Source of the DNA: Escherichia coli
GTDB lineage: Bacteria; Pseudomonadota; Gammaproteobacteria; Enterobacterales; Enterobacteriaceae
Direction: 5' to 3' (one strand)
Length of the DNA: 64,000 nt
Assembly (NCBI RefSeq): GCF_044647545.1
Contig: NZ_CP172818.1
The notes beneath the pieces are model-generated. The model was not told the origin of the DNA, made no database searches, and saw nothing but the letters and a program-made list of their open reading frames with translations. The translations under genes were made by a program, and so were the position numbers. Within the stretch, counting starts at the first letter, position 1; every line of letters begins with the position of its first letter. Positions 10,514 to 11,341 of this stretch are shown here, in pieces.

Positions 10514-10601
10514 AAAAAAAAAAATAATTATTAAATAAAAAAAAAAAAATAATAAAAAAAAAAAAAAAAAAAAGAAATTTTAAAAAAAAAAAAAAAAAAA
10601 A
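10514..10601. repeat. Cluster of long poly(A) homopolymer tracts (about 12, 13, 20 and 20 nt)
   Basis: Directly read: A-runs at about 10514-10525, 10537-10549, 10554-10573 and 10582-10601 in the yqeK-ygeF intergenic region. Confidence 0.95.
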
Positions 10602-10669
10602 GGTGATATTTGACATTATCAGAAGCTGCGAATTCGGATTTTGCTCTAATCAAATGAGAGAAATGTAAA

Positions 10670-11161
10670 ATGAAGCCACGAAATATTAATAATAGCCTAC
10701 CACTGCAACCATTAGTTCCTGATCAGGAGAACAAAAATAAGAAAAATGAAGAGAAATACGTGAATCCAGTTAAAATTACGATGAGGTCTGGTTTAAATTA
10801 TATTGAACAAGAATCTCTTGAAGGAAAATATCTAACACATGATTTGTCAATAAAGATAGCGGATATTTCTGAAGAAATAATTCAGCAAGCAATATTATCG
10901 GCTATGAGCATATATAAATTTCCGATAACAGATGATTTAATGAGTATGGCTACAAATGAACTCATAAAACTGGCCAAAATAGAGAATAATTTAGACCTGA
11001 ATAAATTCTCTACTATATGTACCGACGTTCTATCCCCCCTCGTCACCAGACATAATAAAGAAAAAAAACCAGACGACTTACTACCCTTCGCAAAAATCCC
11101 TTTTTTAATTTTCATCGAAAAAATGGAAATTGATAATATGAATCCAGGCCATGCACATTAA
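10670..11161 (+). CDS. ygeF: ETT2 island protein of unknown function
   Basis: 163 aa ORF starting just downstream of the poly(A) cluster; AT-rich; corresponds by position to ygeF. Confidence 0.6.
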   Translation: MKPRNINNSLPLQPLVPDQENKNKKNEEKYVNPVKITMRSGLNYIEQESLEGKYLTHDLSIKIADISEEIIQQAILSAMSIYKFPITDDLMSMATNELIKLAKIENNLDLNKFSTICTDVLSPLVTRHNKEKKPDDLLPFAKIPFLIFIEKMEIDNMNPGHAH

Positions 11162-11323
11162 GGCATTTATGAAATGTCGTAATTAAGATAACTAATAAGG
11201 TGAATATTAGCAAAACAACTAATGACATTATTGGTTTATAGTGATCAGTATTTTTACTAATAATGAACCAATATACCCATAAGCAATGCAAGCTTAAAAC
11301 TCATAATTCAAAAAGATAAATGC

Positions 11324-11341
11324 AAAAAAAAAAAAAAAAAA
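11324..11341. repeat. Poly(A) homopolymer tract (18 nt)
   Basis: Directly read: 18 consecutive A between ygeF and ygeG, inside the spurious 5' extension of the 11320..11889 ORF. Confidence 0.95.

Follow-up and report, generated by a model that had tools for sequence, protein, structure and literature searches.

The window analysed here is a stretch of E. coli DNA of 64 kb that covers the left end of the ETT2 type III secretion island, where G+C falls to about 0.28-0.36 between 7 and 16 kb. Genes were assigned from the open reading frames of the window together with the annotation of homologous loci, and run from yqeI to ygeH (Table 1). YgeG is a TPR chaperone homologous to Shigella IpgC, and its partner is the regulator EivF (PMC9241512). 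In direct alignment with the ST648 strain IMT16316, positions 1-16493 are collinear at 99.65% identity and positions 17825-64000 match at 99.989%; the two blocks are separated by an IS2 of 1331 bp, and the window lacks the ETT2 core.

Five runs of A, all on the + strand, surround ygeF: four lie in the yqeK-ygeF spacer and the fifth in the ygeF-ygeG spacer. They are the only homopolymers of at least 9 nt in the window. The 11-mer A11 occurs 32 times, each time inside one of the five runs, when dinucleotide-preserving shuffles lead to an expectation of 0.20 +/- 0.53. The original prediction of five exceptional poly(A) runs around ygeF is thus borne out, far above chance, and all its coordinates are confirmed. 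Its lengths (about 12, 13, 20, 20 and 18 nt) are right for the last four runs, whereas the first has 11 nt instead of 12. Literature searches found no description of these tracts. Comparing tract lengths across E. coli genomes separates the fifth run, which varies, from the four upstream ones, which were found in no other genome. Our results suggest that the five tracts most likely reflect two unrelated phenomena, a real microsatellite at 11324-11341 and a probable consensus artefact at 10514-10601.

Table 1. Features of the window discussed in the text (positions in the window)
Feature	Position	Strand	Remarks
yqeI	8408-9217		
yqeJ	about 9198-9632		
yqeK	ends near 10266	-	
Direct repeat AAGGTGATA	10390-10398 and 10600-10608		bounds the segment absent from K-12
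Segment absent from K-12	10399-10599	.	227 bp in ST648; alignment with K-12 breaks off at 10398 and resumes at 10600; window has the A-rich patch
Aberrant A-rich patch with the four upstream tracts	10441-10597	+	157 bp; probable consensus artefact
A11	10514-10524	+	in patch; IMT16316 counterpart AAAAAACAACA
A13	10537-10549	+	in patch; IMT16316 counterpart TGCCGATGCTACTAAGTAAC, through deletions and changes to A
A20	10554-10573	+	in patch; IMT16316 GGTAAAAAAAGTAAAAATGA (20 nt) overwritten base for base
A20	10582-10601	+	in patch; ends at the right copy of AAGGTGATA; IMT16316 counterpart TGATAGAATAAAGCATGAGAAAA
ygeF	10670-11161	+	intact, 163 aa; by position and context the same as WP_022646070.1
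Equivalent of predicted ygeG promoter	11307-11345	+	TTCAAA 11307-11312, 27-nt spacer with the tract, AATCAA 11340-11345
Upstream ATG and ygeG extension MQK(n)INES...	11320-11397	+	ORF 11320-11889; in frame only if n is a multiple of 3
A18	11324-11341	+	between ygeF and ygeG; 56 nt upstream of the ygeG start codon
ygeG	11398-11889	+	TPR class II type III secretion chaperone (IpgC homologue); Pfam TPR_3
ygeH	12224-13600		
K-12 IS2 and ETT2-core deletion	16494-17824		window has the exact K-12 junctions, with ST648 alleles within 14 and 22 bp of IS2
Segment of ~75 bp missing in K-12	19109-19181		window has a perfect ST648 copy
K-12 REP-containing insert of ~150 bp	32606		window has TAATTT joined to AGGCC in place of TAATTTAAAGGCC
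K-12 REP-containing insert of ~109 bp	62358		window has GATGCGA joined to AAGGG in place of GATGCGACAAGGG

The four upstream runs belong to a patch that concentrates almost all divergence from strain IMT16316. Over 16.5 kb the window shows 58 differences from IMT16316, of which 55 fall within these 157 bp, and the remainder are two SNPs and an A18/A19 difference in tract length. The patch combines 26 deleted bases, mostly G and C, with 29 substitutions, all but one of which (28) turn another base into A. In its first 42 bp the affected segment agrees fully with IMT16316; isolated G and C are then lost, and in the second half A takes the place of the other bases without a shift of register, until the match to IMT16316 resumes abruptly at AAGGTGATATTTGAC. 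The extent of the change can be seen in 137 bp of the yqeK-ygeF spacer, a stretch that covers most of the patch: it normally holds 39-40 G+C and is unchanged in every other ST648-like locus measured, whereas the window has 115 bp with 5 G+C.

The patch is absent from 5,426 complete RefSeq genomes, among which the best identity over this 1.5 kb is 96.4%, and from all the Logan/ENA loci examined (short-read contigs and metagenomes). Exact look-up of patch-specific open reading frames in the gene-call index gave no match, and an exact scan of JGI metagenome contigs and GTDB representative genomes found no long A-run abutting GGTGATATTTGAC. Independent assemblies of the lineage thus lack the feature, as would be expected of an artefact. 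Two other origins were considered and rejected. Plain slippage, which alters length, fails for the upstream runs since bases in the second half of the patch were replaced one for one by A. Accordingly, the slipped-strand mispairing originally proposed for the tracts holds only for the one between ygeF and ygeG, whose length varies among otherwise identical genomes. Diversity-generating retroelements, with their adenine-specific mutagenesis, offer a parallel, because any base may stand in one copy where the other has A. Yet here the comparison is of one non-coding locus in two strains and not of a template and variable repeat pair, and both this origin and gene conversion were discarded because the 64-kb window has no second copy and the patch includes 26 deletions. 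We think that the four upstream tracts are probably not part of the organism's DNA and were created in the making of the consensus.

The location of the patch is informative in this respect. It lies inside a gap of the K-12 alignment and ends 2 bp from the right edge of this gap. The K-12 state itself resembles a classic repeat-mediated deletion that took most of the yqeK-ygeF intergenic region. Five large structural differences distinguish K-12 from ST648 across the 64 kb, and the window has anomalies at four of these sites (Table 1). Apart from tract length and the patch, the only indels relative to ST648 are 2 nt missing at 32606 and 1 nt missing at 62358, both at the junctions of REP-containing inserts of K-12. 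The IS2 is identical to the K-12 copy and sits in the order orgA remnant, IS2, ygeQ remnant, with the ETT2 core deleted and flank positions at 16479 and 17846. No complete RefSeq genome exceeds 96.8% identity for the combination of these IS2 junctions with ST648 flanks, and exact look-up of the open reading frames at the junctions gave no match. Partial-gene look-ups at both junctions returned contig ends that match the intact ST648 allele or neither allele, and not IS2, which is uninformative on the junctions themselves. As for the four SNPs private to the window, two are indeed private to it, and the other two match K-12 but may just as well be private to IMT16316. The patch therefore behaves as an artefact should, being co-located with a structural difference from the putative template and accompanied by anomalies at other such sites. 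The junctions of REP inserts are natural indel hot spots, and part of the coincidence could be biological.

The most economical reading of these observations is that a consensus or polishing step working on a K-12-like draft or reference produced the window sequence. Such a step would have rebuilt moderate insertions and trimmed template-specific inserts slightly off; it could not have restored the 20-kb core and would have failed on the 227-bp AT-rich insertion. In the latter, columns of noisy reads anchored at the left would slip out of register with distance, so that isolated G and C would drop out and the commonest base, A, would win until the right anchor restored the register. A simple K-12-guided consensus was rejected as a sufficient cause, because the ~75-bp insertion and many small indels follow ST648 exactly. 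The exact recovery of that insertion implies that such a procedure would have to be able to rebuild moderate insertions.

The patch shares many traits with the errors made by reference-guided or polishing procedures at insertions: it falls within a segment absent from the template, its head is intact, error grows with distance and recovery is abrupt, there are small glitches at the junctions of other structural differences, and the template-specific IS2 and deletion are kept. We simulated this process by piling up 60 noisy reads of the true 227-bp segment from its left anchor, with no realignment, and calling each column by majority. The simulated consensus had an intact head with a first error at 13-38 (43 observed), a G+C count that decreased from 64 to 22-38 (24 in the window), and runs of A17-A21 at the two tail positions where the window has its own. 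However, simulations matched only part of the pattern: they also gave long T-runs that are absent from the window, and did not reproduce the nearly G-specific losses of the first half. The left-anchor pileup model would thus be right only qualitatively, and it does not identify the tool.

Could the patch instead be a real private allele, resulting from one or a few local events? Gap-filling synthesis might add A opposite damaged or missing bases (the 'A rule' at abasic sites) or skip them; alternatively, repeated slippage might merge adjacent A-runs. The changes are consistent in strand, all being to A on the + strand, and clustered, as a single-strand event would give, and extreme instability of an A-tract already exists 750 bp away, including a case of ~190 nt in strain MSB1_8B. 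Yet no intermediate form was found in any other genome, contig or metagenome searched, and slippage does not overwrite in register. It would also be necessary to explain why three base types were near-fully replaced over 157 bp when the other 16 kb accumulated 2 SNPs, and why the patch coincides with the K-12 gap and the other glitches with K-12 structural differences. We know of no natural precedent for near-complete replacement of three base types over such a patch, and regard a private allele as unlikely. The upstream tracts should thus receive no biological reading before the source reads are checked. If the consensus explanation is right, they clearly illustrate that conspicuous low-complexity sequence can be generated by a templated consensus.

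The fifth tract has a very different status. Judging from the compared assemblies, the ST648-type ETT2 allele has here a mononucleotide repeat that is real and hypervariable. Complete genomes encoding the identical YgeF protein have it in the context GATAAATGC-A(n)-TC, and across those with the same ST648-type ETT2 allele n takes the values 7, 9, 13, 15, 18, 19, 21, 22, 24, 26 and 27, although single lengths taken from long-read assemblies are error-prone and possibly off by a few bases. In the n = 9 case (strain ST648) an extra C precedes the A9. This variation occurs in otherwise nearly invariant sequence: ten short loci (~1.9 kb) show zero differences from IMT16316 besides tract length, and 20AR0192 (A18) has 3 other differences from it over 41.5 kb. 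In 57 further ST648-like genomes the matched spans fit 1509 + n, a rule verified on 8 fetched loci, and imply mostly n = 13-27. The mode of the lengths is ~20-24. The most extreme case is MSB1_8B (NZ_LR890536.1), with ~190 nt of A at this site (locus positions about 2650-2850), in which TT, T and C separate blocks of 43, 30, 16 and 85; the tract may be genuinely expanded to a very large size, or the record may be the noisy long-read consensus of such an expansion. Two human isolates with similar names, 1532WA (NZ_CM149886.1) and 1532MA (NZ_CM129638.1), have spans of 1529 and 1531 bp, implying A20 and A22. If it is true that both come from one patient, the tract would have changed within the host.

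Homopolymers are miscounted by long-read assemblers, and one might ask whether all this variation is sequencing or assembly error around a constant true length. Strain ST648 indeed has an odd C plus A9, and the interrupted tract of MSB1_8B is typical of noisy consensus. When n is a multiple of 3, the extended product of ygeG can be searched by exact-protein look-up and used as a length probe. In the index of Logan short-read contigs and ENA metagenome assemblies, A15 was found in 6 contigs, and A18, A21 and A24 in 39, 87 and 61 index blocks, respectively. The recurrence of these four discrete lengths in many independent short-read and metagenome assemblies implies that length variation is not a long-read artefact. 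Furthermore, the range of 7-27 far exceeds the usual homopolymer miscounts, and the near-identical KN13-4 and KN12-1, from one study, have the same span. Hence, error as the sole source of variation is scarcely credible.

The origin of the real repeat may be traced through related alleles without the expansion, which read GCAAAAAATT, GCAAATAAAAATT and ATATAAAAATATC. Comparison with GCAAATAAAAATT and GCAAAAAATT suggests that an interruption was lost from a short A-run in the ST648-type allele, leaving a pure run. This run would then change length by replication slippage, much faster than point mutations accrue. Gur-Arie et al. in 2000 and Diamant et al. in 2004 reportedly described polymorphic intergenic mononucleotide repeats of ~6-12 nt in E. 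coli that serve as typing markers. Like them, the fifth tract is a non-coding A/T run made polymorphic by slippage. Unlike them, it is much longer, confined to one ETT2 allele and one lineage, and the sole variable site in otherwise identical sequence. We would place it in this known class of polymorphic intergenic mononucleotide repeats, as a member of unusual length and instability. As far as we know, its length and variability are unusual for E. coli, and it provides a ready-made high-resolution marker within the ST648 clone.

The position of the tract raises the question of its effect on ygeG. Genomic SELEX in K-12 identified a binding site of the RpoD holoenzyme between ygeF and ygeG, flagged as H-NS-associated, for which the authors proposed a ygeG promoter TTTAAA-17-TATCAA (PMC3946193). 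The same spacer is listed in K-12 as an H-NS-associated 'promoter island' (PMC3661553). We located the K-12 string, TTTAAA AAAGATAAATATAAAAA TATCAA, at 2394 of the fetched K-12 locus, and the ST648 tract falls between the equivalents of these two predicted hexamers, which were picked computationally inside a K-12 site bound by RNA polymerase in vitro and are not mapped starts. The idea that the A-runs may alter promoter spacing is therefore supported for the fifth tract, which changes the distance between the two proposed hexamers, and is not supported for the four upstream runs. The predicted spacer measures 9 + n nt. It reaches 16-18 nt only at n = 7-9, and the common n of 13-27 gives 22-36 nt. 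Since most lengths lead to such long spacers, the fifth tract looks like a drifting microsatellite rather than a tuned on/off switch. The expansion most likely inactivated the weak predicted ygeG promoter, and the tract would now drift neutrally in an H-NS-associated, decaying island. The gene may still be transcribed through read-through from ygeF.

This can be set against contingency loci in which a homopolymer occupies the promoter spacer, such as the poly(A) of the vlp genes of Mycoplasma hyorhinis, the poly(G) or poly(C) of porA and opc in Neisseria meningitidis, and the poly(C) of the fim genes of Bordetella pertussis. The similarities are that the fifth tract would lie between the predicted -35 and -10 of a proposed promoter, and that slippage varies its length among very close isolates (A7-A27, and ~190 nt). 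The differences are more important. In contingency loci the spacers stay within a few bases of 16-18 nt and toggle expression, whereas here the lengths do not cluster near this functional spacing, spacers being mostly of 22-36 nt and up to ~200, and the promoter is only predicted. By analogy, the tract behaves like a repeat that escaped from constraint. A very unlikely alternative is that the ST648 tract is a working ygeG contingency locus, either because rare contractions to ~A7-A9, seen in MINF_9A and strain ST648, restore the spacing, or because poly(A) in the ygeF-ygeG transcript modulates translation or Hfq binding, and that, separately, the upstream patch arose by an undescribed local process turning everything to A. 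If true, such a contingency locus would mean stochastic control of a type III secretion regulator in a multidrug-resistant clone.

The original prediction went further and suggested that all five tracts are functional, as phase-variable promoter or UTR spacers or as curved high-affinity H-NS sites that silence the island. Some elements fit this idea: the fifth tract is in a proposed promoter spacer and variable in length, the ygeF-ygeG spacer of K-12 is H-NS-associated, and a perfect TTGACA (10611-10616) lies just downstream of the last upstream tract. But four of the five tracts are unique to the window sequence, and the common lengths of the fifth give spacings far from 16-18 nt. The tracts are also out of helical phase, with the upstream runs starting at 10514, 10537, 10554 and 10582, thus spaced by 23, 17 and 28 bp instead of the ~10-11 bp of a helical turn. 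Moreover, K-12 shows H-NS association of the spacer although it lacks any long tract, and our promoter scan remained at the level of shuffled sequences (5 sites versus 7.6 +/- 2.8), with nothing above shuffle expectation in the promoter and terminator scan. The upstream runs thus match neither phased A-tract curvature nor an UP-element-like activator, which would put an A/T-rich block at -40 to -60 of a mapped promoter. A function of all five tracts thus seems highly improbable. The TTGACA itself follows the last upstream A20 at 10 bp and precedes the ygeF ATG by 54 bp, and a scan for its -10 partner found no acceptable hexamer. In avian pathogenic E. coli, deletion of ygeG, the chaperone gene adjoining the tract, reportedly has an effect on virulence (PMC10463865). 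An effect of tract length on the expression of this gene is hypothetical here.

The variable repeat also has practical consequences. Assemblies are broken or distorted by it, and lengths divisible by three create a spurious poly-lysine extension of YgeG in gene calls. Gene callers report ygeG variants of 188-191 aa starting with MQK(n)INES... in many public assemblies. The upstream ATG at 11320 has no obvious ribosome-binding site, and for this reason we take the extension to be probably an annotation effect. Reading frames upstream of ygeF had also been thought to depend on the tracts, which might place this gene in or out of frame with the preceding sequence in other strains. This does not hold: there are two in-frame TGA codons between the last upstream tract and the ygeF ATG, and no tract length can therefore join ygeF to the sequence before it. 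In K-12, ygeF is a pseudogene through a frameshift that lies elsewhere, at an internal A8 run (11061-11068) plus CC, where K-12 misses 2 nt. At the same positions of ygeF, the O157 sequence differs and reads CAAAAAAGTCAAAA.
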